From: Lachnospiraceae bacterium
GTDB lineage: Bacteria > Bacillota > Clostridia > Lachnospirales > Lachnospiraceae
Direction: 5' to 3'
Assembly (NCBI GenBank): GCA_022794255.1
Contig: JAAWEL010000027.1
Location: 1,676 to 65,675 of the forward strand
Length of the DNA stretch: 64,000 bases
Positions 22,284 through 39,850 of this stretch are shown piece after piece (within the stretch, counting starts at the first letter, position 1; each line of letters begins with the position of its first letter). Below the pieces are notes generated by a model, which was given only the letters and a program-made list of their open reading frames with translations, was not told the origin of the DNA and did not search any database. Made by a program: the position numbers and the translations under genes.

Positions 22284-22688
22284 TCATTTCTCCTCCCGGT
22301 CATGAAGCTGCTCTAGCACCTCCTTCATCTTCTCCGGGATGGGAAGTCCTAAGTGCGCCGCATTCTCCAAAAGGCTCACGCCCTCATTGGAGATATAGAA
22401 GAAAATCACTGCAGTACGCAGCACGCTCCCTGTCCCGATAACCTGCACTTCGAGGATGTTGGCAATCCCCACAAGCAGGAAAATCATCACCTTCTGGCAG
22501 ATGCCTTTAAATCCCACCTCGCTGGACAACCTCTTGTCCGCCACCGCGCACATCACGCCTGTGACATAATCCACCACAGCAAATGCGATCAGCGCATACA
22601 GCAGACCGTCACAGCCTCCCAAGAAGTAGCCGAGCCACCCTCCAATGGCTACAAAAATGAGCTGGATCGTGTTCCAAAATTCTTTCAT
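22284..22688 (-). CDS. phage holin (toxin secretion/phage lysis holin family)
   Basis: GGWLGYFLGG, VDYVTG, LSSEVGFKG and NEGVSLLENAAHLGLPIP motifs; AAGGAGG RBS. Confidence 0.92.
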   Translation of the reverse strand: MKEFWNTIQLIFVAIGGWLGYFLGGCDGLLYALIAFAVVDYVTGVMCAVADKRLSSEVGFKGICQKVMIFLLVGIANILEVQVIGTGSVLRTAVIFFYISNEGVSLLENAAHLGLPIPEKMKEVLEQLHDREEK

Positions 22689-22983
22689 AGAGAAACCTCC
22701 TTTAAATGATTTTTTGTATAAAAACGTTTACATCCCCCGGAGGGTTTTTGCTCTATAGGACACACTTTCCTATAGAACAAAAAAATCCCCGCTGTATCGT
22801 CAGCAGAGGCTTTTTGATGATCCTGATAATGGAATTTTTCACAGCTGATCCACCAATTCCGCTGCCAAATCAATATCATTTTTCTCGCGAGATACTACCT
22901 GTGAACAGCAACAAATATGCCACATTCTCATAGTAGATGTATTCAAGCTTCAGAATCGAATCGATTCTTCTGTTTCACCATCC

Positions 22984-23581
22984 TTAATCCAGCTTGCGGA
23001 CGGTTATGGATGTGTTGTCTGCCCTACTGACAGTCGCCAAGGAAGTTGTTCGAGGAATTACAGCATTATTAGCGGTAAGATGCACACCAACCAGAACCGG
23101 CGAATTAACAGAGGCCGAATTAGTGCCAACCGTATGATACGAAATCTCATAAGTTCCGTTTGCCACCAGGGAAAACCTACCAGTATTCACAGGATGTACA
23201 ATATCCGTGCCCTTGATAAACAAAGAATCTGTAAAGTAAATGAGCCCATTCCTTCCCGGAGCCTGCGCTACATCACTAACTGACATCAACGCATGCAGCA
23301 CAGGAGCTGGACCTGCAGCTCCCGGAATCCCCTGGGGGCCCTGGGCTCCGGTAGGACCAGTTGGTCCGGTAGACCCTACCGCGTTCACCAGATCAAAGTC
23401 CGGGGACGTTCCCAGCACTCTTACCGGGGAATTTTTGTTTGCACGGTACAAGGTGCCATTCCAGTAAACCAGATCCCCCTGCAGCATCCTCTATTACCAC
23501 AGTTCTGGTTAGTTGTGCAGTTCTAATTACTTCCACAGTTTATATTTCCCCACACCCGGAAGCCATTGGATCATAATACAT
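22984..23581 (-). pseudogene. collagen-like (BclA-type) spore surface protein, disrupted
   Basis: RBS AAGGAG plus MYYDPMASGCG start at 23581, Cys-rich frameshifted segment with stops, then an ORF with GPT/GPQ triplets and a BclA-C-like tail ending SITVRKLD. Confidence 0.65.
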
Positions 23582-23679
23582 ATCATCACTCCTTCTATTT
23601 GTTTCCAGCTGGCTTACTATATGATATGTCCTCAGGTGATTTTGGTTCGTCCCAACGCGGCGGTTTTGTAACCTCTACA

Positions 23680-23935
23680 GAACATAAGGTGAAAAAACCT
23701 GTCCCTCTGGATGAAATCGCCGCTGCTTTGGATGTGATTGACCGCAACACCGCTACGGGTAAGCGTGACTATGCAATGATTATGACAGAGCCTGTCACCG
23801 GGATAAGGTCTGTTGATATCATAAACCTGACTTTTGACGCGATTGACTGGATTAACGGGGAAAACGCTTGCACTTCCTTTAACGACAGACGTTGGAGAAG
23901 CCATTCAGGACTATATATTGAAAGGAACACCTTAA
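23680..23935 (+). pseudogene. tyrosine recombinase/integrase fragment
   Basis: IDRNTATGKRDYAMI...TGIRSVDIINLTFDAIDW (box I Arg), then in another frame LALPLTTDVGEAIQDYILKG; no C-terminal H-x-x-R or Tyr. Confidence 0.8.
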
Positions 23936-24151
23936 TGCTACACGTTATAAAGTCAGCGATGAAGAACTATTAAAAAGGCTTAGCGGCCTAAAATTTATCA
24001 GAAATTTTTATAGTGCTGTTTTCTTGAAACAATGGCCTCACTCATTGTTTTTCTGATAACTCTTTTTTTCTGATAAGGGAGCTTTTTTAACTGGCAATTC
24101 AGGTGTATAAGATGTATAAACGCAAATGCTCTTGTTCATTAAGGGAGTATT

Positions 24152-24330
24152 TGGCAAAATAAAAAATCCCAAAAAGTGTAGTTTTTGGGAATATTCTACT
24201 TATAAAATTTTATAGGCAAATATCCATAGAAAAAAGATTAAGTTTATTGATATTTTGACGATATTATGATAAAGTATAGCTGATTTGTGGCAAAATAAAA
24301 AATCCCAAAAACTACACTTTTTGGGAATAT
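24152..24330. repeat. two 43-bp direct repeats (24152-24194, 24288-24330) whose 24-bp cores (24167-24190, 24303-24326) are perfect inverted repeats
   Basis: TGGCAAAATAAAAAATCCCAAAAA-[GTGTAG or CTACAC]-TTTTTGGGAATAT; only the central hexamer differs, and the two hexamers are reverse complements. Confidence 0.95.
24238..24275 (+). promoter_or_regulatory. sigma28 (FliA/SigD)-like promoter with an overlapping sigmaA-like promoter
   Basis: TTAAGTTT-N11-GACGATAT (24238-24264) vs consensus TAAAGTTT-N11-GCCGATAW; also TTGATA-N17-TAAAGT with TG (24247-24275). Confidence 0.6.
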
Positions 24331-24397
24331 AATGAGAGAACTTGGAAATGCGTTGCAATTTATATTTATAAGCTTCAGAGGCAAAAAGAGAGGAAGA

Positions 24398-25777
24398 ATG
24401 TCATCAGATAAGATATGTAAAACGGTTCGTCAATATAATAAAGTTCCAATTTCTAAAGAAGATATGGGAAAGCTGCAGGATATAGCGATTGACTACAGCA
24501 AAGTAAAAAATTATGTCTATGACCGTTTTGGCGGAATTGGAAGTCTTTCAAAGCTGTACCCGGGATATACGATACAAAATGAGATGACTGCCACAGATCT
24601 GAGAAAAATATTGGGATTGCCAAGTGTTTATTTTTATCTTGCAATTTTTGAGGCGCTGGCTGATATCAAAGGGCAATGGAACCGGACTAAATCCAAGTTA
24701 TTGCTGCTCATAGGAACCAATGATAATTTCACATCAGAGGAAAAGCATTATCTTCGGTTTGTTTTGAAGGTTAATAATGCTTTTTCGGCAATACTTAATC
24801 AGAAGCCTATGGAACTTTCTCAGGAGATACAGAAAAAATATGAGGAGGTAGCCATTGGCATTAATAAGGAAAGGCTTCATCGCTATCTGTGCAGGCAGGT
24901 AAGAAAATATCATGTTAAACAGCATACGGACGGAGCAAAGGGATTCGCTATTACAGAACGGGCTTACCGGTATGGAAATCATGGAATCTATCTGTCCACG
25001 AAACAAAACCGAAAACGGATTTTTGTGCCATTGACAGACAACAACCAGTATAAGAGCCAGCTGTACATAAAGCTTTATCCGGACAGGGAAAGCATTGAGA
25101 TTATGGTGCCCGTTTATATGGAGCCCCGCTCCTTTGAAGAATATACCAATCAAATAGGTATTTCTATTGGCATGTTTACTATGTTGACTACCAACGATGG
25201 TCATTGCTATGGAAAAGAATTTGGAAAATATCAGACCTATTACTCAGAGTGGATTCGGAATCAGACTATAAGCTACAGCTGCAACCGGGGAGATAATCCG
25301 GGAAGAAGAAAATATTATGCAAAAAAGAAAAAACTTGAAGAACAGCTCCATGCCTATATTAATCAGGAGCTTAATCTCTTTTTTAGACAGGAGAAGCCGC
25401 AGACTATTTATATGGCTAAGCTCCCCGAGCCCCAAAAAAGTGGGGCGGTTCCCAAGATCAATAATCAGGTGACTATGTGGCAGAGAGGGTATATCCGCAG
25501 CCGTCTGATACAAAAATCCAGAGAAAAATCTGTGGAGGTTGTGGAGGTGTTGGGAAAAGACATTAGCAGAGAGTGCAGCCAATGCAGGGAGATGGGGAGT
25601 CAAAAAGACGGAATCTTTATCTGCGAACGATGTGGGTATTCAGCGGATAAAAAGCTAAATACTGCTCAAAACGTATGGAAGCGTGGAGTGGAAGGAAGGA
25701 TCATAAGAACAACAGTTTGGATGAATGCTGGTTCCAAACCAGGATTTTACCGCAAGGACCAGACAGAAGGTTCATGA
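24398..25777 (+). CDS. TnpB/Cas12f-like protein with inactivated RuvC (TldR-like), 459 aa
   Basis: RuvC-I IGISIG (D replaced by S256), RuvC-II IYMAKL (E replaced by A340), intact Zn finger CSQC...CERC, RuvC-III DKKLNTAQNV (D replaced by K419); no tnpA nearby. Confidence 0.82.
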   Translation: MSSDKICKTVRQYNKVPISKEDMGKLQDIAIDYSKVKNYVYDRFGGIGSLSKLYPGYTIQNEMTATDLRKILGLPSVYFYLAIFEALADIKGQWNRTKSKLLLLIGTNDNFTSEEKHYLRFVLKVNNAFSAILNQKPMELSQEIQKKYEEVAIGINKERLHRYLCRQVRKYHVKQHTDGAKGFAITERAYRYGNHGIYLSTKQNRKRIFVPLTDNNQYKSQLYIKLYPDRESIEIMVPVYMEPRSFEEYTNQIGISIGMFTMLTTNDGHCYGKEFGKYQTYYSEWIRNQTISYSCNRGDNPGRRKYYAKKKKLEEQLHAYINQELNLFFRQEKPQTIYMAKLPEPQKSGAVPKINNQVTMWQRGYIRSRLIQKSREKSVEVVEVLGKDISRECSQCREMGSQKDGIFICERCGYSADKKLNTAQNVWKRGVEGRIIRTTVWMNAGSKPGFYRKDQTEGS

Positions 25778-26000
25778 TATAAAAAACAAACGGCATTAGA
25801 AGGCAGGAAAAGCCTGCGCATTGGGTATGCCAAGACCTTGGGAACATCGATTCTTTTTCAAGGAGAGATGACGTAGCAGGGAGCGAAGTGAAGCTGTCCG
25901 AGCGGCTCCTTCACATCACACAAAAAGTGACCAATATGCCTTATTTTAAAAGCTATGCACAAGACAGACCAAAATTGCGGGTATAACAAAAAGAATGGAA
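25727..26000 (+). ncRNA. candidate omega/guide RNA of the TnpB-like gene
   Basis: Series of hairpins directly downstream of and overlapping the gene end, where TnpB omegaRNAs lie; boundaries uncertain. Confidence 0.4.
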
Positions 26001-26007
26001 GATAACA

Positions 26008-28566
26008 ATGAGAAGGACATACAAAAAGCAGGCAGAAGATTTTATCAAGCTGTTAGAACAGGTGCATACAGAGATAAAAAAGTCTATAGAAGCAAAAAAG
26101 TATAATACAGCCATGGAGCTTTTAGGTCAATGCCAGGAAGGCGCCATTGGGCTGGGTAATCTGATAGAGAAAGAGGAGGGAGAAGATTTTGTCACGATTC
26201 CTCTTTTACAGTCTTACTGTGAAGTTACCTATCAATTGTACAAAGGCCTGTACCAAAAGGAAGATTTGCCTGGAAACAGGGCATACAAAAATCTCAAAAA
26301 GGCTTTGATCCAGATAGAAAACAGTGTAAGAAATGATATCAAAGGACGGCTGGAAATCGTGTTTCTTCCTTATAAGGCATCCATGTGGGACAGCATGGAA
26401 AGTGTCTGGCAGGCAGCAGCAGCGGATCCGGACTGCAGCACCTATGTTGTGCCGATTCCATACTATGAGAGAAACGAAGAGGGTGTGCTGAACAAATACT
26501 GCTATGAGGGAGATCAAATGCCGGATTATGTGCCAGTGACCTCCTATAATGCCTACAATTTCAAAGATCAAATGCCAGATGTGATCTATATTCACAATCC
26601 ATACGACCAGGGGAATTATGTGACCAGTATTGACCCCAGATTTTATTCTGGTGAATTAAAAAAATGCACTTCATGTCTTGTATATATTCCCTATTATAGT
26701 ACTGCGGGTGGAATGGGCGAGGGACAAAGCCTTTGTCAGGCGTATTTTAATGTGGACCATATTGTCGTCCAGTCAAAGAAATTCATCAAATTCTTTGACC
26801 CGGTTATTCCGGAAGAAAAGTTTTTGCCCTTGGGTTCTCCCAAATTTGACCGGGTGATTCAAATGTGCAGCAATCCGCCGAAAGCGCCAGAAAGCTGGAA
26901 GAAAAAAATGGAAGGCCGGAAGGTTTATTTTTATAACACAAGCATTAACGGAATGTTGGCAGATACAAAGACCTTTCTGAAAAAAATGGAATATGTGTTC
27001 CAATGTTTTGAGAACCGGCCGGATTCCTGTCTGTTGTGGCGTCCTCATCCTCTGCTGGAATCCACCTTTGCGTCTATGAGGAAAGAGTATAAGCCCTGGT
27101 ATGACCGGCTGAAAAAGCAATTTGCAGATGCAAATCTGGGAATATACGATGACACTTCAGATATCACCAGCACAATTGCCCTGTCAGATGCTTATATCGG
27201 GGACGCAGGAACAAGTGTCACCTCTCTTTTTGGCATTGTGGGAAAACCCCTGTTTATATTCAATAACCAGATTAACACTCTTCCCCAGTCCGATGACTGG
27301 AGGGGCGAAAAGATTAATCTGGCGTTGGACGTTTGGGAAAATGACCGATACCAGATTACCCAAAATAACCAGCTGTGGTTTTCTGAAAAAAATGATTACC
27401 ACTATAAATTTTATATGGATCTGGGAACCGGATATTCGGGAGGCAGCTATTACATAAGAGCCCTGGAAATCAAAGATAAGATATATGTCCTTCCGGGAAA
27501 CGCTCAGAATCTGCTGATTATTGAAAACAAAAAAATAAGAAGGATTGATTTTAAGACAAAAATCCCACAGCCGGGAGCTTTTTACAGTTACTGGTACAAT
27601 GAAAAATATATTTTCCTGATTCCCTTTCAGTATCCGCTGCTTCTCCGGTTCAATATAGAAACAGAAGAATTGCAGGGGATAGAGGGCATCCGGCCGTTCA
27701 ATGTGCGAAATATAAATGGAGAATGGCGGGCCGGAGGTGTGGGTATATACGGCAATGAACTGGTTTTTGCCTCCCCAAAGGACAATGAATTTATCTTCAT
27801 AGATATAAATACATTGCGGGCCAGAGGGTTGTGCAGCCATTCCCATTGTAATCTTGGAACCCAGGGAATCATAAATGAAGGGGATGAGTTGTGGCTGATG
27901 CCCATGAACGGCATGACTATTACCTGTTGGAATCCAAAGACAGGACAGGTGAGAGAATATGATGATCTGCCCGGTGATTTTAAGTCTGTTCGGTGGCCAC
28001 AGGAGCAGGAATGTAGGGAACGGCCCTTTTTGAATCTGGTATTTTGGAGAGTGAGCGGGAAAGAAAATATTGTCATAGCTCCATGTTGGGGGAATATGTA
28101 TCTGACTCTGGACCGGGAGACTGGAAAAATGGAGAAATGGGAGCCGCCGGTTCCTTTTGTTAATCGTGGAAAAAACGGCTATTTTGCTGCCTCAGGTATG
28201 GGGAGTTTCTGTGTCACCTACCCACGGATGGGAAAGGCTGACTGCCGGATCTGGTATGCGCCAGAGAGAAAGCTCTATGATATCAACATTGACACAAAGG
28301 AATATAAAGAGATCGAAATCAATTTTGATTACCAGGATCTTCGGGAGCATGAGTGCGGATTTATGGAGGAATCGGAGTGGATGCAGTATTGTCTCAATGA
28401 AAGTGCATTTAACTCTCTGAAAGATTTTCTGGATGGAAGGATAACCGGCAATCCCTTTGACAGAGAAAGGCAGATCCGGGCGTTTTCAAAAATAAACGCA
28501 TCAACAGACGGGGCCTGCGGGAAGCGGATTCACCGTTTTGTAAAGGGAAGGCTGGGGGATTGCTGA
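26008..28566 (+). CDS. CDP-glycerol glycerophosphotransferase-like protein with N-terminal helical bundle and C-terminal beta-rich domain
   Basis: FLPYKASMWDS, YIHNPYD, LGSPKFD, LWRPHPL and SDAYIGD motifs. Confidence 0.75.
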   Translation: MRRTYKKQAEDFIKLLEQVHTEIKKSIEAKKYNTAMELLGQCQEGAIGLGNLIEKEEGEDFVTIPLLQSYCEVTYQLYKGLYQKEDLPGNRAYKNLKKALIQIENSVRNDIKGRLEIVFLPYKASMWDSMESVWQAAAADPDCSTYVVPIPYYERNEEGVLNKYCYEGDQMPDYVPVTSYNAYNFKDQMPDVIYIHNPYDQGNYVTSIDPRFYSGELKKCTSCLVYIPYYSTAGGMGEGQSLCQAYFNVDHIVVQSKKFIKFFDPVIPEEKFLPLGSPKFDRVIQMCSNPPKAPESWKKKMEGRKVYFYNTSINGMLADTKTFLKKMEYVFQCFENRPDSCLLWRPHPLLESTFASMRKEYKPWYDRLKKQFADANLGIYDDTSDITSTIALSDAYIGDAGTSVTSLFGIVGKPLFIFNNQINTLPQSDDWRGEKINLALDVWENDRYQITQNNQLWFSEKNDYHYKFYMDLGTGYSGGSYYIRALEIKDKIYVLPGNAQNLLIIENKKIRRIDFKTKIPQPGAFYSYWYNEKYIFLIPFQYPLLLRFNIETEELQGIEGIRPFNVRNINGEWRAGGVGIYGNELVFASPKDNEFIFIDINTLRARGLCSHSHCNLGTQGIINEGDELWLMPMNGMTITCWNPKTGQVREYDDLPGDFKSVRWPQEQECRERPFLNLVFWRVSGKENIVIAPCWGNMYLTLDRETGKMEKWEPPVPFVNRGKNGYFAASGMGSFCVTYPRMGKADCRIWYAPERKLYDINIDTKEYKEIEINFDYQDLREHECGFMEESEWMQYCLNESAFNSLKDFLDGRITGNPFDRERQIRAFSKINASTDGACGKRIHRFVKGRLGDC

Positions 28567-28669
28567 TTCATGACTCAGACTGGTTTTATACAACAAAGGA
28601 CTGCACCGCTCTAAGGCCTGAATGATCGCTGGCTTTAAAATACAGGGAGAGGAGCATTTGGGAAGGATT

Positions 28670-30004
28670 ATGACAAAGGTAATAACATATGGAACATTTG
28701 ACCTCTTCCACGAAGGTCATTACCGGCTTCTTCAAAGAGCAAAAGCGCTGGGAGATTATCTGATTGTAGGAGTGACCACAGAGGCCTATGATAAGGCACG
28801 GGGAAAGTTGAATGTGGTGGATTCTTTGATGACCCGGATTGAGAATGTGAAAAAGGCAGGCTTTGCCGATGAAGTCATCATCGAGGAGGAGCTGGGGCAG
28901 AAGATCAATGACATTAAAAAGTTTCAGATTGATATTTTTACCGTTGGCTCTGACTGGGCGGGAAGCTTTGATTATCTGATGGATTATTGTAAGGTAGTAT
29001 ATCTGGAGCGAACAAAAAACATATCCAGTACCATGCTGCGGGAGAAAAACAGCTGTATCCAGAGAATCGGGATTATAGGAACCGGGCGGATTGCACAGCG
29101 GTTTATTCCAGAGGCCAGGTTAGTCAGCGGAGTCAGTACCCAGGGAGTCTACAATCCTCATATCACGAGTGCAAGACGGTTTGCTGACAAGTGGGAAATT
29201 AATGCGTATACCGATCTGGAAGAATTTTACAGTGCAGTGGATGTGGTTTACATTGCCTCGCCTCACGAGACGCATTATGAATATATCCGGTCTGCCCTAA
29301 ACCATGGCAAACATGTCCTTTGTGAAAAGCCTATGGTGCTGAAAAAAGCGCAGGCAGAGGAGCTTTTTGAGCTGGCAAGAGAGAAAAAAAAGGTTTTGTT
29401 TGAGGGGATCAAGACAGCCTACTGCCCGGGATTTCACAAGCTTTTAGGCGTTGCCGGCAGCGGAACGGTGGGAATGATCCGGAATGTGGAGGCTTGTTTT
29501 ACAAAGCTGGAACAAGAGAACAGCCGGGAGCTGACTGCTCCGGTGTACGGGGGAAGTTTTCTGGAGTTGGGAAGCTATGTGATGCTTCCGATTCTTAAGC
29601 TTTTCGGAAAGGATTTTGAAGAGATCCGGTTTGATACCATTAAGGGAGAAAACGGGCTGGATCTTTTTACAAAAGCTTCTCTTTGTTATCCAACAGGGGT
29701 GGCTACCGCTACTTGCGGGCTGGGGGTCAAGTCGGAGGGAAGATTGTTGATTGCCGGAACAAAAGGATATATTGTGGCGGAGGCGCCCTGGTGGAAAACC
29801 TCCTATTTTGAGGTTCACTATGAAAATCCAGGGGAGGTCGACAAGTATTCGGAACGGTTTTTAGGGGACGGGCTGCGGTATGAGATCAGTGATTTTCTTT
29901 CCATGATTAACGGGAACAGCAGCAGCGAATTTAAGCTGACCCGGGGAGAGTCGGTGGCATTGGCTGGGGTGATGGAGCGGTTTATGGAGGAGAGAGAGGG
30001 ATGA
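28670..30004 (+). CDS. TagD-like cytidylyltransferase fused to a Gfo/Idh/MocA oxidoreductase
   Basis: ITYGTFDLFHEGH, GSDW and RTKNISST motifs, then GIIGTGRIA and HVLCEKP. Confidence 0.88.
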   Translation: MTKVITYGTFDLFHEGHYRLLQRAKALGDYLIVGVTTEAYDKARGKLNVVDSLMTRIENVKKAGFADEVIIEEELGQKINDIKKFQIDIFTVGSDWAGSFDYLMDYCKVVYLERTKNISSTMLREKNSCIQRIGIIGTGRIAQRFIPEARLVSGVSTQGVYNPHITSARRFADKWEINAYTDLEEFYSAVDVVYIASPHETHYEYIRSALNHGKHVLCEKPMVLKKAQAEELFELAREKKKVLFEGIKTAYCPGFHKLLGVAGSGTVGMIRNVEACFTKLEQENSRELTAPVYGGSFLELGSYVMLPILKLFGKDFEEIRFDTIKGENGLDLFTKASLCYPTGVATATCGLGVKSEGRLLIAGTKGYIVAEAPWWKTSYFEVHYENPGEVDKYSERFLGDGLRYEISDFLSMINGNSSSEFKLTRGESVALAGVMERFMEEREG

Positions 30005-30918
30005 GAGGGATGGGGTGCGGGAGTGTATCGGAAGCTTATGTTAGTCCAAAATCATCCCCCTATTTTGCTTTTAATATATGGAGCATCGAATCTGCAAAAG
30101 CGGTGCTTGACGGTTCCGCAAAAGCAGGCCGGGACGTGATTCTGCAGACCTCCATGAAAGCATTTCTAAGATTGGATAAAGAAGAGCTCCGCAGATTTGT
30201 CACCAGCTATATGCATAAAAAACAGATTCGGGCTTACCTGCATTTAGATCACTGCAAAGATCCGGATCAGATAAAAGAGGCTATAAGTCATGGCTGGGAT
30301 TCCGTGATGATCGATGCCTCCCACAAGCCATTGGAAGAGAATATTGCAATGACCAATCTTGTATGCAGGATGGCAGAAGGAACCGGGATATTAGTGGAAG
30401 CAGAGATCGGGCAGATCTTTAAGGCCGGGGATGACATCCACAATGCAGAAACAGGAATTGCCAGGATAGAAGATATTAAAACCTTTGTGAAAAACACCAG
30501 GGCCCATATTCTTGCAGCAGCAGTAGGCACATCCCATGGTTTATACAAAGGCCTGCCAAAGATTCACTATGACCTGATAGAAGAAATAGCAGCTTTTACC
30601 AATATTCCTCTGGCAATCCATGGGGGCACAGGCCTTACGGACGAGATGTTTTTAAAACTGTTATCCCATGAAAACGTTAAAAAAATCAATATTTCAACGG
30701 ATGTAAAGATGGCCTTTAGGCAGGGAATTATGGAAAGCCTTCAAAAAGGATCGATGAGCGAAGGCGGTTTTGATCCTATGAAGGTAGAAGAGGCGATCCA
30801 TGATTTTCTGGAAGAAATGGCGGTAAATAAATTGAGATTATTAAGGAAAGACGGTAACCATGAAGACAATTCTTGTTCTGAATATGGGTATGAAAAGTAT
30901 CCGGAGCATTATCTTTGA
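30001..30918 (+). CDS. class II fructose/tagatose-bisphosphate aldolase family protein
   Basis: LHLDH, SVMIDAS, VEAEIG, GTSHG, IHGGTG and KINIST motifs. Confidence 0.9.
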   Translation: MRGMGCGSVSEAYVSPKSSPYFAFNIWSIESAKAVLDGSAKAGRDVILQTSMKAFLRLDKEELRRFVTSYMHKKQIRAYLHLDHCKDPDQIKEAISHGWDSVMIDASHKPLEENIAMTNLVCRMAEGTGILVEAEIGQIFKAGDDIHNAETGIARIEDIKTFVKNTRAHILAAAVGTSHGLYKGLPKIHYDLIEEIAAFTNIPLAIHGGTGLTDEMFLKLLSHENVKKINISTDVKMAFRQGIMESLQKGSMSEGGFDPMKVEEAIHDFLEEMAVNKLRLLRKDGNHEDNSCSEYGYEKYPEHYL

Positions 30919-32392
30919 CAGCGAGGGCAATAAACTGGCCTCATTTGCAGTGCCCATAGAAACCTCCCTTACCGGCGATACCGTTACCCAGGCCCCGTCC
31001 GAGTGGTGGGAGAAGGCATGCAGGGTGATAAGGGAGTCTCTGGCAGATGCAGGGAATATTTCGGTTGACTATCTGACTGTGACCACATCTTCCTCCTGCC
31101 TGGTATGTGTGGACAGGGAAGGGGAGGCGCTTCTTCCCTGTATGATGGTATCAGACAAGAGGGCAGTGAAAGAGAGTGCTTTGCTAAAAGAGGCAAAGGC
31201 CTTTGAGAAAGTAAAGACAAGAACAGGGCTGGGGGCAGACCCGTCTCTGATGATTCCAAAAGCCTTATGGGTGAAGAGAAACCGGCCGGAAATATTGGAC
31301 CAGGTGTATCAGCTGTTATCGCCCAATGATTTTCTCATTGCGAAATTTACTGGCCGGTATGTGACCGATTATATGAATGCCCAGAAATGGCATTATGATG
31401 TGGAGAACCGCTGCTATCCCCTGGAATTATTGCAGGAGGTGGGAATCCCCCAGCAGTTTCTCCCCAAAGTGGCAGTTCCCGGCGCTTGTGTGGGAAATGT
31501 GCTGTGTGCGGCTGCAAAGAAAACAGGGCTTTCCACAAACACCCAGGTAATCGCAAGTACCTATGATGCCATATGCTCTTTTATTGGAAGCGGCGCCTTA
31601 AGTGAAGGGGAGGCAAGCGATGTTTCGGGAACTGTTACTGTGTTCCGGGCAGCCTCCCAAAAGAAGATAGAAAAGCCGTTGGACAAGATACAGCAGCTTC
31701 CTTACTATGAAGGCGGCGTCCACATCATTGGCGGTTCCAACAATTTAGGAGGCGGTTTGATCGAATGGGTAAAGCAGTGCTATTACCAGAATGAAGCGCT
31801 TCCCTATGAGCTTATGGAAAAAGATGCAGGGGAGGCATCTTTAGGAGCAGGAGGAATCATTTTCCTGCCTTATCTTTTGGGAGAGCGGGCGCCCATATGG
31901 GACAATAATGCCAGAGGGGTGTTTTTTGGATTGGAGAGAATGCACACCAGAAAGGAAATGACAAGAGCTGTTTTTGAAAGCGCAGGATTCATAGACCTGG
32001 ATATGATCGGAGCGATTGAAAAGACAGGGTTATCGGTCCATACCATCCGGCTTTCCGGGGGACTGGCCAGACTGAATCTGATTTCCCAGATTAAAGCGGA
32101 TATTACAGGGAGGGAGGTCTGGGTGCTTTCGGAATTTGAGACTACAGCCACCGGGGCGGCAATGATTGCGCTGTACGGACAAGGGGTTTATCAGTCTTTG
32201 CGGGAGGCAGTGGACCGATTCGTGCAGATCCGCATGATGATCCGGCCGAACCAGAAAAACCATGAAAAATACACAGAGCTGTATCAATTATATAAGGAGA
32301 CCTACCACACCCTAAAACCGCTGTTCCCAAAGAGAATGGAATTGACGGAACGCTTGTATGGAATAAAAAGGATTAAGATAGAAAATCTTTGA
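30860..32392 (+). CDS. FGGY-family carbohydrate kinase (xylulokinase-like)
   Basis: DKRA, SGT, FLPYLLGERAPIWD, SGGLAR and QIKADITG motifs. Confidence 0.9.
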   Translation: MKTILVLNMGMKSIRSIIFDSEGNKLASFAVPIETSLTGDTVTQAPSEWWEKACRVIRESLADAGNISVDYLTVTTSSSCLVCVDREGEALLPCMMVSDKRAVKESALLKEAKAFEKVKTRTGLGADPSLMIPKALWVKRNRPEILDQVYQLLSPNDFLIAKFTGRYVTDYMNAQKWHYDVENRCYPLELLQEVGIPQQFLPKVAVPGACVGNVLCAAAKKTGLSTNTQVIASTYDAICSFIGSGALSEGEASDVSGTVTVFRAASQKKIEKPLDKIQQLPYYEGGVHIIGGSNNLGGGLIEWVKQCYYQNEALPYELMEKDAGEASLGAGGIIFLPYLLGERAPIWDNNARGVFFGLERMHTRKEMTRAVFESAGFIDLDMIGAIEKTGLSVHTIRLSGGLARLNLISQIKADITGREVWVLSEFETTATGAAMIALYGQGVYQSLREAVDRFVQIRMMIRPNQKNHEKYTELYQLYKETYHTLKPLFPKRMELTERLYGIKRIKIENL

Positions 32393-32405
32393 TAAAGGGG
32401 AGCTT

Positions 32406-33557
32406 ATGAAACCATATCCGTTGAATATTCCCACAAAAGTTTATTTTGGAAGAGATATATGGAGAGAGGCTGTAAAAGCCCTGGAACCTTTCTTTAGAGG
32501 AAATATTATGCTTGTGACTACCGGGCGTTCCCTTACCCGCCTGGGTTATGTGGAAGAACTGGCGGAAACAATAAAAAAGTGCCCTTTGGCAGAGCGCGTG
32601 ATAATTTTTGATTCCGTCAGCGCCAATCCCAGACTTTCAGAGGTGAGAAAGGGGATTGGGTCAGGAAAAGAAAACAGGGTAAGTGTGATTCTGGGGTTTG
32701 GTGGAGGAAGCGCTTTGGATGCAGCCAAGGCCATAGCAGCCGGTATGGGGATTGAAGAGGACATCGGAGCGCTTTTTTATGGCAGGAAGGAGCCGGGAAA
32801 GAACACGCTGCCAGTGATCGCCATTCCCACAACAGCCGGAACTGGAAGTGAGCTGAGCAAAGCCGCTATTATCACGGATGAACAGACCAGGAAAAAGGGA
32901 GGAATCCGGGGCGCGGCTCTTTATCCAAAGGCTGCGATTGTGGATTCTGTATTTACAGATTCCATCCCCCTTCGTGTGACCATGGAAACAGGATTTGACG
33001 TGTTTGCCCATGGGATGGAAAGCTATCTGTCCCTGGCAGGATCTCCATACACAAGAATGCAGTCTGAGTATGGAATCCAGATTGTAGGAAAATATCTTCC
33101 GCGGCTGTTTTTTGATCTGGAGGATAAGGAGGCAAGAGACAAGTTAAGCTTTGCCAGTATGATTATGGGAATCAACTTGGGGAATGCCAGCACCTGCCTT
33201 GTACACAGGCTTCAGTATCCTTTAGGAGCCCATACGGATACCAGCCACGGAGCCGGGTTAGCTGCTCTGTTTCCAGCGTGGACAAGCTTTGAGCATAGAT
33301 ATGCGCCCCATATGGTAGAGAGGGGAGTCAGCCTGCTTTGGGGACAGGATATCTGCGGGCAGCAGGCATGTATGGAGAAAATTCGCTGTTTTATAGAAAA
33401 ACTGGAACTTCCCCTGTCTTTAAAAGCCCTGGGGGTGAAACGAGAGCTTTTGCAGGTTATGGCATCCGAGGTGACAGGAAATGTGAAAAATGATCCGGCG
33501 TCACAGGAGGAAGACATTATTATGAAATTATATACTATGTCTTTTGACGGGCATTGA
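32406..33557 (+). CDS. iron-containing alcohol dehydrogenase
   Basis: GGGSALDAAK, IPTTAGTGSE, DVFAHGME, LVH and SHG motifs. Confidence 0.92.
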   Translation: MKPYPLNIPTKVYFGRDIWREAVKALEPFFRGNIMLVTTGRSLTRLGYVEELAETIKKCPLAERVIIFDSVSANPRLSEVRKGIGSGKENRVSVILGFGGGSALDAAKAIAAGMGIEEDIGALFYGRKEPGKNTLPVIAIPTTAGTGSELSKAAIITDEQTRKKGGIRGAALYPKAAIVDSVFTDSIPLRVTMETGFDVFAHGMESYLSLAGSPYTRMQSEYGIQIVGKYLPRLFFDLEDKEARDKLSFASMIMGINLGNASTCLVHRLQYPLGAHTDTSHGAGLAALFPAWTSFEHRYAPHMVERGVSLLWGQDICGQQACMEKIRCFIEKLELPLSLKALGVKRELLQVMASEVTGNVKNDPASQEEDIIMKLYTMSFDGH

Positions 33558-33591
33558 ATGAAAAGTAAATGGAATGAGAGGAATCGGATCG

Positions 33592-34329
33592 ATGCAGGCA
33601 ATCATTATGGCTGCCGGGAAGGGCAGCAGACTGGGAAAAATAACAGAAGGAAAGCCAAAATCTTTCGCAGAAATAAAGGGAAAGAAATTGATTGAGTATA
33701 ATCTGCAGCTTTTAAAAAAGTATGGGATTGAAGATATCTTTATTGTGACAGGGTATTGTTGTGAGGCGTTTGAAAAGCTGACAGAAAATATGGAGGGAGT
33801 ACATCTGATCTACAATCCTTTTTATGAGATGATGAATGTACTTGGCTCCTTTTACATGGGAATGGATGTTCTGAAAGATGATTTTGTCTATCTTCATGCA
33901 GATACTTTGTGTGAGCCTGTTATATTTGAAAAGCTGATTCATATGGCTTCTGATGCAGACGCAGTTCTTCCCGTGGATTATGGTCCCTGCAATGAGGAGG
34001 CTATGAAGGTAAAAACCATAGCAGGGAATATTGTGCAGATCACCAAGCAGATACCGGTGGAAGAGGCAGAGGGAGAGTTTATCGGTATGGCAGCCTTTCG
34101 GAGAGAGCTGATACCGGCGCTTAAGGACAGGACAAAAAGGCTTTTGCAGGAAAAGAATTTTAACGAATATTTTGAACGTGCAGTTCAGAGGCTTATTGAC
34201 GAAGAAAATTACCGGATCAAAGCAGTTCCCACAGCAGGCGCTTTCTGGACAGAGATTGATTTTATGGAAGACTATGAAAAAGCGGTGGCGTGTATACCGG
34301 AGAGTCTGACAGGAATTTTTGAAAGGTAG
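33592..34329 (+). CDS. LicC-like NTP transferase (phosphocholine/sugar-phosphate cytidylyltransferase family)
   Basis: MAAGKGSRL...KPK, EEAMKV, GEFIG and WTEIDF motifs. Confidence 0.88.
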   Translation: MQAIIMAAGKGSRLGKITEGKPKSFAEIKGKKLIEYNLQLLKKYGIEDIFIVTGYCCEAFEKLTENMEGVHLIYNPFYEMMNVLGSFYMGMDVLKDDFVYLHADTLCEPVIFEKLIHMASDADAVLPVDYGPCNEEAMKVKTIAGNIVQITKQIPVEEAEGEFIGMAAFRRELIPALKDRTKRLLQEKNFNEYFERAVQRLIDEENYRIKAVPTAGAFWTEIDFMEDYEKAVACIPESLTGIFER

Positions 34330-34357
34330 TTTCATTCACACAAGGAAATGGCAGAAA

Positions 34358-35584
34358 ATGGGATATAACGAAAAAAGCGATTTATCAGAAAGAATTTATA
34401 TTGCAAAGCGGAGAGGGAAGGCATTTCTTCACAGTCTGGTATTTGATCTGTGCCGGATTTTTCCCATAGATCCGAAAAAGGTGGTCATGTGGACCTTTGA
34501 GTGCGGAGGCGGGTATGGGTGCAGCCCCAAATATGTGGCAGAGGAAATACTAAGGCAGAACCGGGAGGGGAATACGGATTATAAAATTGTCTGGCTCATG
34601 AATGATACCGATAAGGAGTTTCCAAAGGAGATAAAAAAAGTAAAGAATACCCTTTGGCATCGGGCATACCATCTGAGTACTGCCAGTATTTGGGTCAGCA
34701 ATACCAGAACCTTCTACGGCACCAAAAAGAGAAACAAGCAGTGTTATATCCAGACATGGCATGCAACCATGTGTATAAAGCCAATCGGAAAATACCGGGG
34801 CAACCTGCTGCCTAAAATGGCATATATTGTCAGCAAATATGATTCCGGCCTGATTGACTATGTGCTGTCCGGATCAAAATGGTGCGATCATATGTACCGG
34901 AAGGGACTGATTTATAAGGGAAGGATTGTAAGAACAGGAACGCCCAGATGTGATGTGCTCATAAACCAAAAGGAGGAGAAGCACAGGCAGATGAGGGAGG
35001 AATGCAAGATTCCCCCAATGGCAAAGATCTTACTGTACGCGCCCACATTCCGCGGGGGAAGTCAGAGTGGAAAGCGGTCTGTGAACGGGGAGGAGACAAC
35101 GGTTGATTTCAAACGCCTTATAGAAAGCCTGAAAAAAAGATTTGGCGGCCAATGGTACATATTTTTGCGGCTTCATCCCCAACTGGCAGTGAATACAGAA
35201 GGGATTCATACCGGACAGACATCCGAACGCCTGATTGATGTGAGCCAGAGACCGGATATGAATGAGATCATAGCTGGAGCAGATGCCTTTCTGACAGACT
35301 ATTCCAGTGCTGTTTTTGAGGCGGCTATGGCCGGGATACCCGGATTTATCTATGCGGATGATCTGGAAGAGTATATAAAGGACCGGGGAGATTTGATGTT
35401 TGATATGAAGAAACTACCCTTTCCTGTGGCTTTGGACAATGATGGCCTGATGAGAAATATCGCAGAGTTTGACAGCGAGAAGTATGAGAGAGCGGTAAAA
35501 GCATTTATGGAAAAGGTGGGAAACGAGGAAGATGGGAAGGCAAGCGGGCGAGTTGTGGAATTGATCAGGAGAGGAAGAAAATAA
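34358..35584 (+). CDS. TagF-like CDP-alditol phosphotransferase
   Basis: CSPKY, IQTWHA, GTPRCD, LYAPTFRG, RLHP and LTDYSS motifs. Confidence 0.9.
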   Translation: MGYNEKSDLSERIYIAKRRGKAFLHSLVFDLCRIFPIDPKKVVMWTFECGGGYGCSPKYVAEEILRQNREGNTDYKIVWLMNDTDKEFPKEIKKVKNTLWHRAYHLSTASIWVSNTRTFYGTKKRNKQCYIQTWHATMCIKPIGKYRGNLLPKMAYIVSKYDSGLIDYVLSGSKWCDHMYRKGLIYKGRIVRTGTPRCDVLINQKEEKHRQMREECKIPPMAKILLYAPTFRGGSQSGKRSVNGEETTVDFKRLIESLKKRFGGQWYIFLRLHPQLAVNTEGIHTGQTSERLIDVSQRPDMNEIIAGADAFLTDYSSAVFEAAMAGIPGFIYADDLEEYIKDRGDLMFDMKKLPFPVALDNDGLMRNIAEFDSEKYERAVKAFMEKVGNEEDGKASGRVVELIRRGRK

Positions 35585-35639
35585 AAATGGGGAGATAGTG
35601 GTTTGCTTTGCTGTTTAAGTATTTGAATGTTTGATAAAG

Positions 35640-35837
35640 AAATCCAGGTGGTGATCCATTTTCCATGCTGCTTATGGAATTGAGATAAAATGGAAAAAAA
35701 GCGCAAAGAGTGCGATTGAGTGGGGCAGGGACAAGAAATATTCTCAGATGTTTGAAGGTTTTGGGAGCGATATTTTGATGGCGGGAATCAGTTATGATGA
35801 GAATACGAAGAAGTATGGGTATTTGATTGAGAGATAG
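35640..35837 (+). pseudogene. C-terminal remnant of an AAA-ATPase/PD-(D/E)XK nuclease-domain gene
   Basis: Frameshifted pieces LLMEL / KWKKSAKSAIE / FEGFGSDILMAGISYDENTKKYGYLIER* resemble that family's C-terminus. Confidence 0.55.
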
Positions 35838-36023
35838 GGAAAGTTATTGAAATCGGCTTGTTATATTTATTGTGATATGAATGAATAGATGGGAGGAATT
35901 AAACAGAATACCAGGATGTTTTCTAAGGGTAAGAACAGCCATAACTTATGGAAAGAATGGTATTTTTGTGTAAGATAAGAACGGAAATGAAGATACTAAG
36001 TTAGAAAAGAGAGGGATATTATA

Positions 36024-37604
36024 TTGGCAATACTGAATGATAGAATCGTTGTTGGAACATCAATAGCACCTGTAAATATTGAACATCAAATGTTAGCTAT
36101 TAAATCATGGATAAAAAATGGTTTTCAAGTTGTATCATGCAATGTAAAGGAAGAAATAGAAATTATTAAACCGTTTTTTGAAGGAATAGATATAGAGTTT
36201 GAAGAAATTCCATGTGTGATTGATTCAGTACGAACAAAACCTCTGCCGTATCTTCAGGATATTTTATTAGCAGCAAATAGGAGAACAGAAGGGGTGGTAG
36301 GATTTATTAATTCAGATATCTACCTTGATAGGATCACATCTGAGTTTTATGATTTTTTGATGAAAGAGACCAAAAACAGTTTGGTCTTTATTAGAAGAAA
36401 TGAGATAGATGATATTGAGGATATAAGAGAAATAAACTGGACAATTCATTTTGACGGAATCGACATGTTTCTAATCGACAGCAAATTTGTCTGTGAATTT
36501 TATGATGATGGATTTTTTGTACAATCTTGTTGGGATCATTGTATTTTGATAAAGGCTGAAATGCAGGGAATACAGATAAAGGAATTAATGAATCCTATTG
36601 CATTTCATAAACGACATAAGCAAAGGTGGAATTTTGAAACTTCCAATATTCTAGTTGAACGATTTTGGGAGAAATATTATAAAAAAGATGAACATGTTTT
36701 CGAAAAAGTTATGGATAAATTTTATGATATTTTATTAACATGCAGACAAATTTGTTTTCTAAAAGAAGAAAAGATCTCTTGTTTGTGTGTTGTAGATCCA
36801 AAAGATAACAGAATTGTTACTAATCTGGAATCTCAAGAATTAGATATGATAGATATTACTATTCAGTATGATGATCAAAATATAGAAAGATATAAATATG
36901 TTTTTTACATTCCTGTGAATACAAGAGTGTCACCAGTATTCTGTAAAACTATAATCTATATTATGTATTCTTTCGGATGTTCAAGTCTGGAAGCTGGCAA
37001 GTTTTATGTTTTGAAGGTAAATGAAAAATATCATAATAGTAGTTTGAATCGCAATATTCACTATTTAGAAGAAATTCAAGAAGAATGTCGAAATAGTACA
37101 ATTATATACAGGATAGAAAAAAATTTTAAAAGAAACAATATTTATTTAAAAAAAGTACTGAGACCGATTATTTATGAAAATATAAGTATCGAAAATCGGA
37201 ATATTTTCAGAAAAATAAAACCAAAGGGAAAATACTATATAGCACCAGCTGGTATACGTGCAGCGCAGTGGTATACAGCTAACAATTATAAAATGATTAC
37301 TATGCAATTTGCAGGATTTATTGATAGTAATAAAAAAGGAAAGAATAACTATGGGATAATTTATCCTATGGATATTTTACTAAATGATTCAGAAGCTTAT
37401 GTAATTATAGCAAGTAAATATTATGCAAAAGAAATTATCGAACGAACAATGGAGTTTATAAATGAAGACAGATTACTAAATGCGGGAAATATTTGTTATA
37501 TAAGTCCAGAAGGAGATCTTTTCTATTTTGATTTAGAACAATATAAAAGAACTTTAAAAAGTGAATTATTGAGTGAAGATTGGGATACGAACAAATCTTC
37601 TTGA
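36024..37604 (+). CDS. hypothetical glycosyltransferase-like protein with C-terminal Rossmann-like module
   Basis: GFINSDI (DxD-like) and GIDMF motifs; AT-rich; TTG start. Confidence 0.6.
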   Translation: MAILNDRIVVGTSIAPVNIEHQMLAIKSWIKNGFQVVSCNVKEEIEIIKPFFEGIDIEFEEIPCVIDSVRTKPLPYLQDILLAANRRTEGVVGFINSDIYLDRITSEFYDFLMKETKNSLVFIRRNEIDDIEDIREINWTIHFDGIDMFLIDSKFVCEFYDDGFFVQSCWDHCILIKAEMQGIQIKELMNPIAFHKRHKQRWNFETSNILVERFWEKYYKKDEHVFEKVMDKFYDILLTCRQICFLKEEKISCLCVVDPKDNRIVTNLESQELDMIDITIQYDDQNIERYKYVFYIPVNTRVSPVFCKTIIYIMYSFGCSSLEAGKFYVLKVNEKYHNSSLNRNIHYLEEIQEECRNSTIIYRIEKNFKRNNIYLKKVLRPIIYENISIENRNIFRKIKPKGKYYIAPAGIRAAQWYTANNYKMITMQFAGFIDSNKKGKNNYGIIYPMDILLNDSEAYVIIASKYYAKEIIERTMEFINEDRLLNAGNICYISPEGDLFYFDLEQYKRTLKSELLSEDWDTNKSS

Positions 37605-37617
37605 AAAGGAATATTTT

Positions 37618-38736
37618 ATGAATAAAAGTATTGCAGTACTAATTCCAAGTTACGCAGAATCATTGACTTCAAATGAGATGATTTCACTAATACAAGTAAG
37701 AAAAATTCTACGAGAATATGATATCTTTTTTATACTTCCAACTTCATTGAAAATTGATTATTCATGTGAAGATATTATTGAAAAAAGATATCCAAATGAG
37801 TATTTTTCTTCTCGCAGAGCATATAGTCGTTTTATGTTGGAACCAATATTATATAAGGATTTTATAGAATATGATTATATATTAGTGTATCAATTAGATG
37901 CCTTTGTATTTTGGAATCGACTCAAGTATTTTTATGATTTGGGTTATGATTATATTGGTGCACCGTGGATCGATGGGATTTATTTCAAAAAGAATAGAAG
38001 AGAATATAAATGGCATGTGGGAAATGGCGGGCTATCTCTAAGAAGAACTTCTGCTTTTTTGAAATGGATTGAACACGAAGAATTTTTTCCGTATATTGAT
38101 TTTATAAATGAAGACATATTGATTGCAGTGTATGGGTATCCATATCTCAATATTGCGCCATTGGATATAGCAGCTTCTTTTTCATTCGAGATGGATTATG
38201 AACAATGTATAAAGTTGACAGAAGGAAAGATGCCGTTTGGTTGTCATGGATGGGAAAAATATGATTTTGATTTTTGGAAACCACTGATTGAAAAACAGGG
38301 ATATAAAGTGGAGACCGCAGAGAAGAACGAAATAGAAAATGCTAATGCAGTTAAAGTGTTAAATAAGTTTTGTTGTAGAAAATATACATATGACGAAATC
38401 CGAAAGATGATACCTCTTTCTTATCAAAATCGTATGCAAGGAGTATATATATGGGGAGTTGGTTTTTGGGGAATTTCATTAATGCAAAAATTACTAGATA
38501 GTGAAGTATTCGTTTCTGGCTTTGTTGATAATGATAGCAGACAATTTGGAAAAAAAATCTTATCATATCCAATAATACAGCCAGAATTTTTTTATAATAC
38601 AAAAAAACCAATCATTATTGCTATAGAAAAGAAATCAGAAGAGGTAGAAAAACAGTTACAGAAATATGGATATAAAAGAAAAAGGGATTACATTGTATTG
38701 GGTGATATAATAAAAGAGATACTAAATGAAAGATAA
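37618..38736 (+). CDS. DUF5672-like putative glycosyltransferase plus Rossmann-like module
   Basis: YQLDAFV, YDYIGAPW, GNGGLSLR, NED and PFGCH motifs. Confidence 0.8.
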   Translation: MNKSIAVLIPSYAESLTSNEMISLIQVRKILREYDIFFILPTSLKIDYSCEDIIEKRYPNEYFSSRRAYSRFMLEPILYKDFIEYDYILVYQLDAFVFWNRLKYFYDLGYDYIGAPWIDGIYFKKNRREYKWHVGNGGLSLRRTSAFLKWIEHEEFFPYIDFINEDILIAVYGYPYLNIAPLDIAASFSFEMDYEQCIKLTEGKMPFGCHGWEKYDFDFWKPLIEKQGYKVETAEKNEIENANAVKVLNKFCCRKYTYDEIRKMIPLSYQNRMQGVYIWGVGFWGISLMQKLLDSEVFVSGFVDNDSRQFGKKILSYPIIQPEFFYNTKKPIIIAIEKKSEEVEKQLQKYGYKRKRDYIVLGDIIKEILNER

Positions 38737-39850
38737 ATTAAGTATGAAAAGAATAGGAATTTTTGCGTTTTTTGATGGATGTGGGATAGTAGATGATTAT
38801 AAGTTGTATTTATTGGATAGTTTGAATTATATTCTTTCAGAAATAATTATTATAATTAATGGATTCATACAAGAAGAATCGCTTGCAAGATTATATGATT
38901 ATACAAATCATATTTATATCAGAGAGAATATGGGATTTGATGCTGGTGCTTATAAAGATATTTTAATGGGTAATATAACATGCATAGAATGGGATTTATG
39001 GGATGAAATTATATTACTAAATGATACCTTTTATGGTCCATTATATCCTTGGGAAGAGATATTTCTGACAATGGATAAAGAAATACTTGATTTTTGGGGC
39101 TTTAGCCGATTTAGTAGTGGAAAACTATGGGATGGTTCAACTATAACACAACATATTCAGGCATATTTCATAGCAGTAAGAAAAAGTATGTTCAGTACTT
39201 TACAATGGAAAAAATTTTGGGAGGGTTTTGAATATCCATCCTCCTATATGGAGGCAATCAAAAAATTTGAAATCAGTTTTACAGATTATTTTTCAAAAGA
39301 AGGATTTTGTTATTCAACATGGATGGATAAAAATGATGGGGAATCCTATATTAAAGAAAATTTAAATCCCTATATGGAGTTTGCATATGATCTTGTTAAA
39401 TACTGTAGATTTCCTATAGTCAAGTATCGGGCATGCTCAGTCGTTAGGTATTCATCAACAAAAGCACTTTTGAATTATATTGAGAACAACACTGATTATG
39501 ATAAAAGGTTAATACTAAAGCATGTTGAACGGATGGATAAAGAAATGAGATTAAAACCATTTGGTATTTCAGAATTAAAACAGTTTGTTAATTCTCATAA
39601 TAGAATATTTATTTTTGGCCATGGAAAATATGGAAAGGGATTAGAAGAATATTTTCAAGAAAAAGGTTGGAAGATAAGTGGATTCATTATGTCAGTTCCT
39701 AATTCGCAGCACAGAAATGAAATAGCACTACAGGATATAGAAATTAGAAAAACAGATGGATTAATTGTTGCTGTAGCGAATGGAGATGAAATTAGACCAG
39801 TTTTAAATAAGAAATTTGAAGATAAGCAATTGTTATTTGCAAGATTTTAA
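38726..39850 (+). CDS. RgpF (rhamnan synthesis F)-like protein plus Rossmann-like module
   Basis: RENMGFDAGAYK, LNDTFYGP, DFWG and HIQAYF motifs. Confidence 0.82.
   Translation: MKDKLSMKRIGIFAFFDGCGIVDDYKLYLLDSLNYILSEIIIIINGFIQEESLARLYDYTNHIYIRENMGFDAGAYKDILMGNITCIEWDLWDEIILLNDTFYGPLYPWEEIFLTMDKEILDFWGFSRFSSGKLWDGSTITQHIQAYFIAVRKSMFSTLQWKKFWEGFEYPSSYMEAIKKFEISFTDYFSKEGFCYSTWMDKNDGESYIKENLNPYMEFAYDLVKYCRFPIVKYRACSVVRYSSTKALLNYIENNTDYDKRLILKHVERMDKEMRLKPFGISELKQFVNSHNRIFIFGHGKYGKGLEEYFQEKGWKISGFIMSVPNSQHRNEIALQDIEIRKTDGLIVAVANGDEIRPVLNKKFEDKQLLFARF

Follow-up and report, generated by a model that had tools for sequence, protein, structure and literature searches.

Two repeats lie upstream of a surface-glycan operon in the window, a stretch of 64,000 nt (C67:1676-65675) from G000, the 3.42-Mb assembly of a mouse-gut Lachnospiraceae bacterium. 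They are, very probably, the ends of a genuine phase-variable invertible promoter, an inverton whose segment measures 112 bp. The repeats stand at either side of the segment, the segment occurs in both orientations in the same strain, and the sites and the promoter are conserved in relatives. According to the mechanism that we propose, a site-specific recombinase exchanges strands at the centres of the two sites and the 112-bp segment between them flips. A preliminary description of the locus had suggested an invertible promoter in front of a surface-glycan operon and a terminator-like palindrome that would arise on flipping; inverted contigs from the same strain, an inverted ortholog and a family of loci with both orientations agree with that suggestion. 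The features are collected in Table 1.

Table 1. Features of the switch locus and its surroundings (window positions)
Feature	Position	Strand	Remarks
Left 43-nt copy	24152-24194	.	15-nt A-rich outer flank, left recombination site and 4-nt inner flank
Right 43-nt copy	24288-24330	.	
Left recombination site	24167-24190	.	TCCCAAAAAGT-GT-AGTTTTTGGGA; inversion joints fall within
Right recombination site	24303-24326	.	Exact reverse complement of the left site; predicted 5'-leader hairpin when ON
Invertible segment, 112 bp	24191-24302	.	ON orientation in the assembly; inverted in X1 and X5 contigs and in the ortholog; family alignment
Sigma-28-like promoter (predicted)	24238-24264	+	TTAAGTTT, 11 nt, GACGATAT; conserved across 34 loci
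Overlapping sigma-70-like promoter (predicted)	24247-24275	+	TTGATA, 17 nt with TG, TAAAGT; TTGAC and TAGAAT kept in the family
TnpB-like protein, 459 aa, first operon gene	24398-25777	+	RuvC catalytic positions replaced, zinc ribbon kept
Conserved structured RNA (omega-RNA-like scaffold)	25789-25948	+	Covariation
Same-strand glycan genes	26008-39850	+	Cluster runs on beyond 39850
Prophage remnant	22284-23973	.	Holin, collagen-like tail-fibre fragment, truncated integrase

Inverted sites and both orientations of the segment

The two 43-nt direct copies start 136 nt apart and are identical at 39 of 43 positions, all four mismatches falling in the central hexamer, GTGTAG in one copy and CTACAC in the other. 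Because these hexamers are reverse complements of each other, the cores of the copies are exact 24-nt inverted repeats, which enclose 112 bp; a repeat search extended them to 29 nt at 93% identity. Recomputation thus reproduced the architecture given in the preliminary description, including the position of the promoter between the inverted cores. When the whole 3.42-Mb genome was scanned with a degenerate core pattern (at most one mismatch), it returned the two switch sites, a decayed copy on contig C7 and one unrelated site only, and the reversed pattern, used as a control, had no matches. The repeat pair is not a chance occurrence. The match between the outer left and the inner right flank ends at 15 nt with no further identity, which rules out that the left copy is a decayed duplicate of the segment.

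Orientation was examined in Logan contigs of four mouse-gut sequencing runs aligned to positions 23300-25300; as these are assembled contigs, they tell of the presence of the two forms and not of their ratio. One of the runs, X1, may be the sample from which the assembly came, and X5 belongs to another study. X1 yielded an inverted left junction, a contig in which +23696-24166 is followed by the reverse strand of 24326-24247, and an inverted right junction, a contig in which the reverse strand of 24259-24167 is followed by +24327-25300. Neither contig contains a single differing letter, and 24 letters fit either side of each joint. The same inverted right junction was found in X5. Contigs of X3 break at the site edges: one extends from the left flank through the site into six ON-specific letters, and another opens with six letters foreign to the window directly before 24303, which fits a mixture of both forms in this run. 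Logan contigs are built from words of 31 letters; the 24-nt repeat is shorter than such a word, so the words that span the junctions must exist in real reads. Contigs with other letters at 24215-24287 belong to the C7 paralog and were recognised by their loose ends. No contig of run X2 spans 24068-24351, and no ON-junction contig is listed for X1; neither was counted as evidence.

Two other joints in X1 jump from 24191/24193 to 24297, skipping about 105 nt between the copies. Their sides are short (25 and 32 letters), and they could be a deletion product or come from another organism's locus.

The inverted form is also seen in the assembly of a sister species, where the syntenic ortholog (G014:C4), whose five upstream genes are 77-98% identical to those of the window, has its cassette inverted, pointing away from the TnpB-like gene. 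At two other loci of that genome and at one of G021 the cassette faces the TnpB-like gene.

These observations bear on two explanations that do without a working switch. The preliminary description had offered as an alternative that the repeats are static, being duplicated operators or minus-strand terminators in which template switching flipped one loop. Loop flips within hairpins are a known type of mutation, and both assembled sites do score as minus-strand terminator-like hairpins; the Logan contigs nevertheless contradict this account, since it is the whole 112-bp segment that is inverted and not the loops alone, and the left and right centres are reverse-complementary in nearly every member of the family described below. 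We give it practically no weight. The locus might instead be a fossil, the relic of past inversions whose segment no longer flips in this strain. Only one complete switch is left in the genome, and its paralog (C7:43679-43798) consists of a promoter and a decayed right site directly before a paralog of the 852-aa operon gene; it has no left site, TnpB-like gene or RNA, all of which its counterpart in the sister species (L024) retains, and looks fixed ON. Against a fossil, however, the two sites of the window are still identical at 24 of 24 positions, contigs that match 0.5-1 kb of flank without a difference have the segment in the reverse of its assembled direction, and both junction types occur in one run, which makes loss of activity very unlikely. 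A functioning inverton is the reading adopted in what follows.

A family of switches with a conserved promoter and cargo

A scan of species-representative genomes yielded 379 loci that encode relatives of the TnpB-like protein. The best 80 of these 379 are all from mouse-gut Lachnospiraceae, among them Schaedlerella arabinosiphila, Sporofaciens musculi, Acetatifactor muris, Dorea sp. 5-2 and strain M18-1, and Sporofaciens musculi alone has seven. Two core sites were recovered by the strict pattern in 41 of the loci with enough upstream sequence, and a looser pair in most others. Where the orientation could be called (33 loci), the segment was ON, toward the operon, in 5 and OFF, away from it, in 28. 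Regardless of how the segment lies, the left site has GTGTA(C/G) or GTATAC at its centre and the right site carries the reverse complement there, a pattern that exchange within the sites predicts. The centre-to-centre spacing of the sites in the 41 loci clusters at 116, 127-128, 134-140 and 146-149 nt; the classes lie about 10.5 nt, or one helical turn, apart, which suggests, for loci that are related to each other, that the two sites may need to be on the same helical face.

At one family locus of the sister species (L019, about 1600-1680, G014:C16), an Illumina adapter-like sequence and a run of N stand inside the contig at the cassette; this public assembly has probably been joined chimerically there, at an invertible region.

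The predicted promoter inside the segment, recognised by its conserved consensus, faces the operon in the assembled orientation. The family alignment of the segments conserves GTTAAGTTTATTGAC, five variable bases, TTG(N)CGATA(A/G)TAT and TAGAAT. This can be read as a sigma-28 promoter (TTAAGTTT, 11 nt, G(N)CGATA(A/T)) or as a sigma-70 promoter (TTGAC, 17 nt, TAGAAT); the two readings overlap, and conservation as such cannot separate them. The conserved CGATA would lie in the spacer of a sigma-70 promoter, a part that is seldom conserved, and this favours the sigma-28 reading. The full sigma-28-like motif is found in the genome only at the switch locus and at its C7 paralog. The genome has a gene for a FliA/WhiG sigma factor that passes the curated cut-off and genes for three flagellins, and the upstream regions of all three flagellins carry GCCGATAT or GACGATAT. 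On balance, we favour the flagellar sigma-28 factor as the one that uses this promoter.

In the ON state the promoter would read through the right site into the nuclease-dead TnpB-like gene, the conserved RNA and the long glycan operon. The right site then forms a 9-bp hairpin only, with no U tract, followed by AUAUAAUG. In the OFF state the promoter would face upstream, and the left site would gain the A-rich inner flank as a mirror image of its own. As the 15-nt outer left flank equals the inner right flank, flipping turns the left site into a perfect hairpin with 24-bp arms and with A and T tracts, of -31 to -32 kcal/mol whichever way it is read. The right site turns into a hairpin with 13-bp arms. 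Both palindromes had been predicted in the preliminary description, and both were obtained again on recomputation. A palindromic extension of the left site, covering 10-11 of 12 flank positions, is present in seven OFF or uncalled loci, in which the sequences differ, and one ON locus has the equivalent direct-repeat flank. We infer that the OFF-state palindrome acts as an orientation-dependent two-way terminator, which would stop both outward antisense transcripts into the upstream genes and read-through from upstream into the operon.

To judge from its genes, the switched operon reads as a large glycan/CDP-polyol operon. It encodes an 852-aa protein without family, a cytidylyltransferase-oxidoreductase fusion, a class II aldolase, an FGGY kinase and an Fe-ADH, and further a nucleotidyltransferase, a TagF-like transferase, an RgpF-like protein and others. 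On the other side of the switch, the prophage remnant sits between a DUF6709 gene and the left site. It is absent from the G014 ortholog, in which the cassette directly follows the same row of ABC-transporter, kinase, regulator and DUF6709 genes.

The product of the first operon gene is, by sequence comparison, a distant TnpB/Cas12f relative, in which Pfam finds only a TNB domain and the NCBIfam model guided_TnpB scores 30 bits, below its cut-off of 100. In the alignment, the first RuvC Asp is replaced by Ser or Ala in seven of seven homologs and the second motif has no Glu, while in the profile alignment a Lys stands against the third Asp of Cas12f. The protein thus shares the loss of RuvC residues that marks TldR proteins, and its residues at these positions identify it as nuclease-dead. 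The gene is single-copy in the genome. A recent IS insertion is ruled out, as at all loci the gene keeps its syntenic place and its divergence parallels that of the operon.

The conserved RNA also follows the TnpB-like gene at all loci, and compensatory changes were found at 19 of its 32 predicted pairs (40 sequences); no Rfam family matches positions 23000-27000. Its 3' end (window 25929-25948, compared over 73 related loci) reads GACCAAT(A/G)T and then (G/A)(C/T)CTTATT and is kept in all paralogs. If this end is a guide, it is a fixed one, common to the whole family. A search for a target of the 3' part in the genome, in the three flagellin upstream regions and in both promoter cassettes returned chance-level matches only. 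One might speculate that the dead TnpB and its RNA, under the flagellar sigma factor, form an RNA-guided regulator that silences other glycan loci or flagellin genes, although we think this unlikely. If true, it would allow one surface type at a time and be a clostridial, RNA-guided counterpart of UpxZ cross-inhibition in Bacteroides.

The candidate recombinase

Each 24-nt core can be read as a 9-6-9 near-palindrome or, alternatively, as 11-2-11 with a central GT. Over 84 sites of the family, and counted from the centre, dyad symmetry amounts to 82-99% at offset 2 (95%) and at offsets 5-10, to 57-61% at offsets 3-4 and to no more than 33% at the central dinucleotide. Two thirds of the sites have GT/AC as this dinucleotide, and one third have AT. 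In the 9-6-9 reading, positions 2 and 5 of what would be the spacer are symmetric in 95% of the sites. This geometry is compatible with a serine-type dyad with a 2-bp asymmetric centre, and alone it does not decide between serine and tyrosine recombinases.

No recombinase gene adjoining the window's own switch was found. The invertase is probably a small serine recombinase encoded at C11:85454-86056 of the same genome, which would act in trans at the central GT dinucleotide. Its product, of 201 aa, has an N-terminal Resolvase domain (PF00239, E 8e-29 in Pfam) and matches Sin/Bin3, gamma-delta resolvase and Gin, the best structural-sequence matches being Sin/Bin3; an HTH_7 domain was not called by Pfam. 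Among the best 80 of the 379 loci, 12 have an ortholog of this gene (70-78% identity) whose end lies some 250-450 nt before the start of the TnpB-like gene, in 11 of the 12 cases on the same strand. In Dorea sp. 5-2 and strain M18-1 the order is recombinase, site, promoter, site and TnpB-like gene. In G009 some 600 nt separate the ortholog from a family cassette that drives glycan genes without a TnpB-like gene. The seven other carrier genomes of the genus sample, moreover, all have an ortholog (71-89% identity), and so do five of five isolates (59-75%).

Two observations speak against this candidate. Orthologs also occur in genomes of the genus that lack the TnpB-like gene, namely G004 (77%), G010 and G025; in G009, which lacks it too, the TnpB-less cassette explains their presence. 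Secondly, no family site was found near the C11 gene itself, nor anywhere else in the genome bar the switch and C7. With no site at the gene and one complete switch in the genome, action in trans has to be assumed.

Other small serine recombinases were seen in suggestive surroundings. A paralog of the C11 protein (59-60% identical) lies between two divergent flagellin genes in G061 (L153, G061:C1:4549268-4552843), a Hin-like arrangement that suggests flagellin phase variation, and another, of the same identity, lies among glycosyltransferase-like genes in G062 (L155, G062:C2:38584-42165), with no flagellin noted. In Sporofaciens musculi (L136:5331-6100, G062:C2), an orphan full family site stands 42 nt upstream of a different small serine recombinase. 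The latter was rejected as a general invertase because it lacks orthologs in those carrier genomes that belong to the window's genus, and a further serine recombinase of the window's genome (C68) was rejected because no relative has an ortholog.

The same inverton could alternatively be flipped by a tyrosine recombinase acting on the 9-6-9 site in the manner of fimS/FimBE or C. difficile RecV, the class that the preliminary description had named. The 9-6-9 reading is geometrically valid; about 40% of the family sites are asymmetric at offsets 3-4 as well, that is, over a centre of 6-8 bp, to which the spacer of a tyrosine-type site would correspond just as well. Candidates are at hand, too, with eight PF00589 matches in the genome, including three FimB-sized paralogs of 192 aa that have orthologs in five of the eight carrier genomes of the genus sample. 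Each of these three, however, adjoins a NusG-like gene with a different palindrome, and they were not found in the other three carriers, nor in four of the five isolates that bear several switches, and were therefore rejected. A 325-aa tyrosine recombinase (C19) was discarded likewise, as it does not track the carriers. Of the 87 related loci that were searched, just five have a tyrosine recombinase nearby, and those five have no site pair. The integrase-like ORF upstream of the switch (23566-23973) matches only positions 48-106 of a 301-position integrase profile; it is a truncated prophage fragment, without relatives at other loci or elsewhere in the genome. No tyrosine recombinase was thus found linked to the sites or co-occurring with them, whereas the serine recombinase adjoins 12 of 80 loci. 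The class assignment of the preliminary description is probably wrong, and we hold the tyrosine alternative to be improbable.

The three 192-aa tyrosine recombinases (G000:C63; L113, L115 and L116) are 75-82% identical to each other. At least two of them are divergent from a NusG/LoaP-like gene, with a palindrome of 13-16-nt arms in the spacer, and these loci are probably a second, separate switch or antitermination family.

Comparison with known switches

Invertible promoters are a main route of surface variation in gut bacteria and are far better known in Bacteroides than in Lachnospiraceae. The locus of the window documents a large, conserved family of switches, with hundreds of loci in mouse-gut Lachnospiraceae and up to seven per genome, which now has a defined site, a sigma-28-like promoter, an apparent built-in orientation-dependent terminator and a candidate master invertase. 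A domesticated, nuclease-dead TnpB with its RNA under phase-variable control is a natural setting in which the function of such proteins can be tested, and the cultured carriers Sporofaciens musculi, Schaedlerella arabinosiphila and Acetatifactor muris make bench tests possible. The switch principle itself is ordinary and well known. The family with the dead TnpB appears undescribed in the literature searched, as nothing matching was found on invertons in Lachnospiraceae or with TnpB.

The TnpB-like protein resembles TldR in being a TnpB relative whose catalytic residues are replaced and that has a conserved RNA just downstream (bioRxiv 10.1101/2023.11.30.569447; 10.64898/2026.09.22.753285). 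One published TldR clade is clostridial and flagellin-associated, and the papers make no mention of inversion, capsule or polysaccharide (same references). TldR proteins are nuclease-dead repressors, whereas no guide target was found for the RNA of the switch and a repressor role is putative here. Another inverton family of gut Clostridia is 'inverton group 139', which has been linked to the tyrosine 'invertase group 35' (PMC11892184). Unlike our family, nearly all of its members have a tyrosine invertase nearby, and the dimensions of its reported examples are different; the comparison covers these published descriptions.

Small invertible promoter or leader segments that turn surface structures ON and OFF are also found in E. 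coli fimS (FimB/FimE) and in the RecV switches of C. difficile (cwpV, flagellar), and RecV-type tyrosine switches include flagellar regulons in Clostridia. Unlike these, the family described here has no tyrosine recombinase linked to it. The likeness to Hin/hix, Gin/gix and Cin/cix lies in the recombinase, which at about 200 aa has a Resolvase domain and matches Gin, and in the sites, which can be read as dyads of about 26 bp with A-tract half-sites and a 2-bp asymmetric centre; the half-site of the switch presumably resembles that of hix. The candidate differs from Hin, Gin and Cin in that Sin/Bin3 are its best matches and no HTH_7 was called, and the segment differs from theirs in being only 112 bp long and in carrying no invertase gene.

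A parallel in organisation is Mpi of Bacteroides fragilis, a single serine invertase that flips many short promoter segments before capsular polysaccharide operons. As there, short promoter segments lie between inverted repeats before glycan operons, relatives have several paralogous loci per genome, most loci are OFF in the assemblies, and the candidate small serine invertase is usually unlinked and would act in trans. Unlike in the Mpi system, the organisms belong to another phylum, the site sequence is another, the promoter is sigma-28-like and the invertase is a predicted one. The first gene, moreover, is a dead TnpB with an RNA instead of UpxY/UpxZ, and the left site is a terminator-like palindrome that depends on orientation. 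Compared with the known kind of inverton, this switch is a variant marked by the sigma-28-like promoter, the apparent built-in terminator logic and an unusual cargo, a dead TnpB with its RNA.
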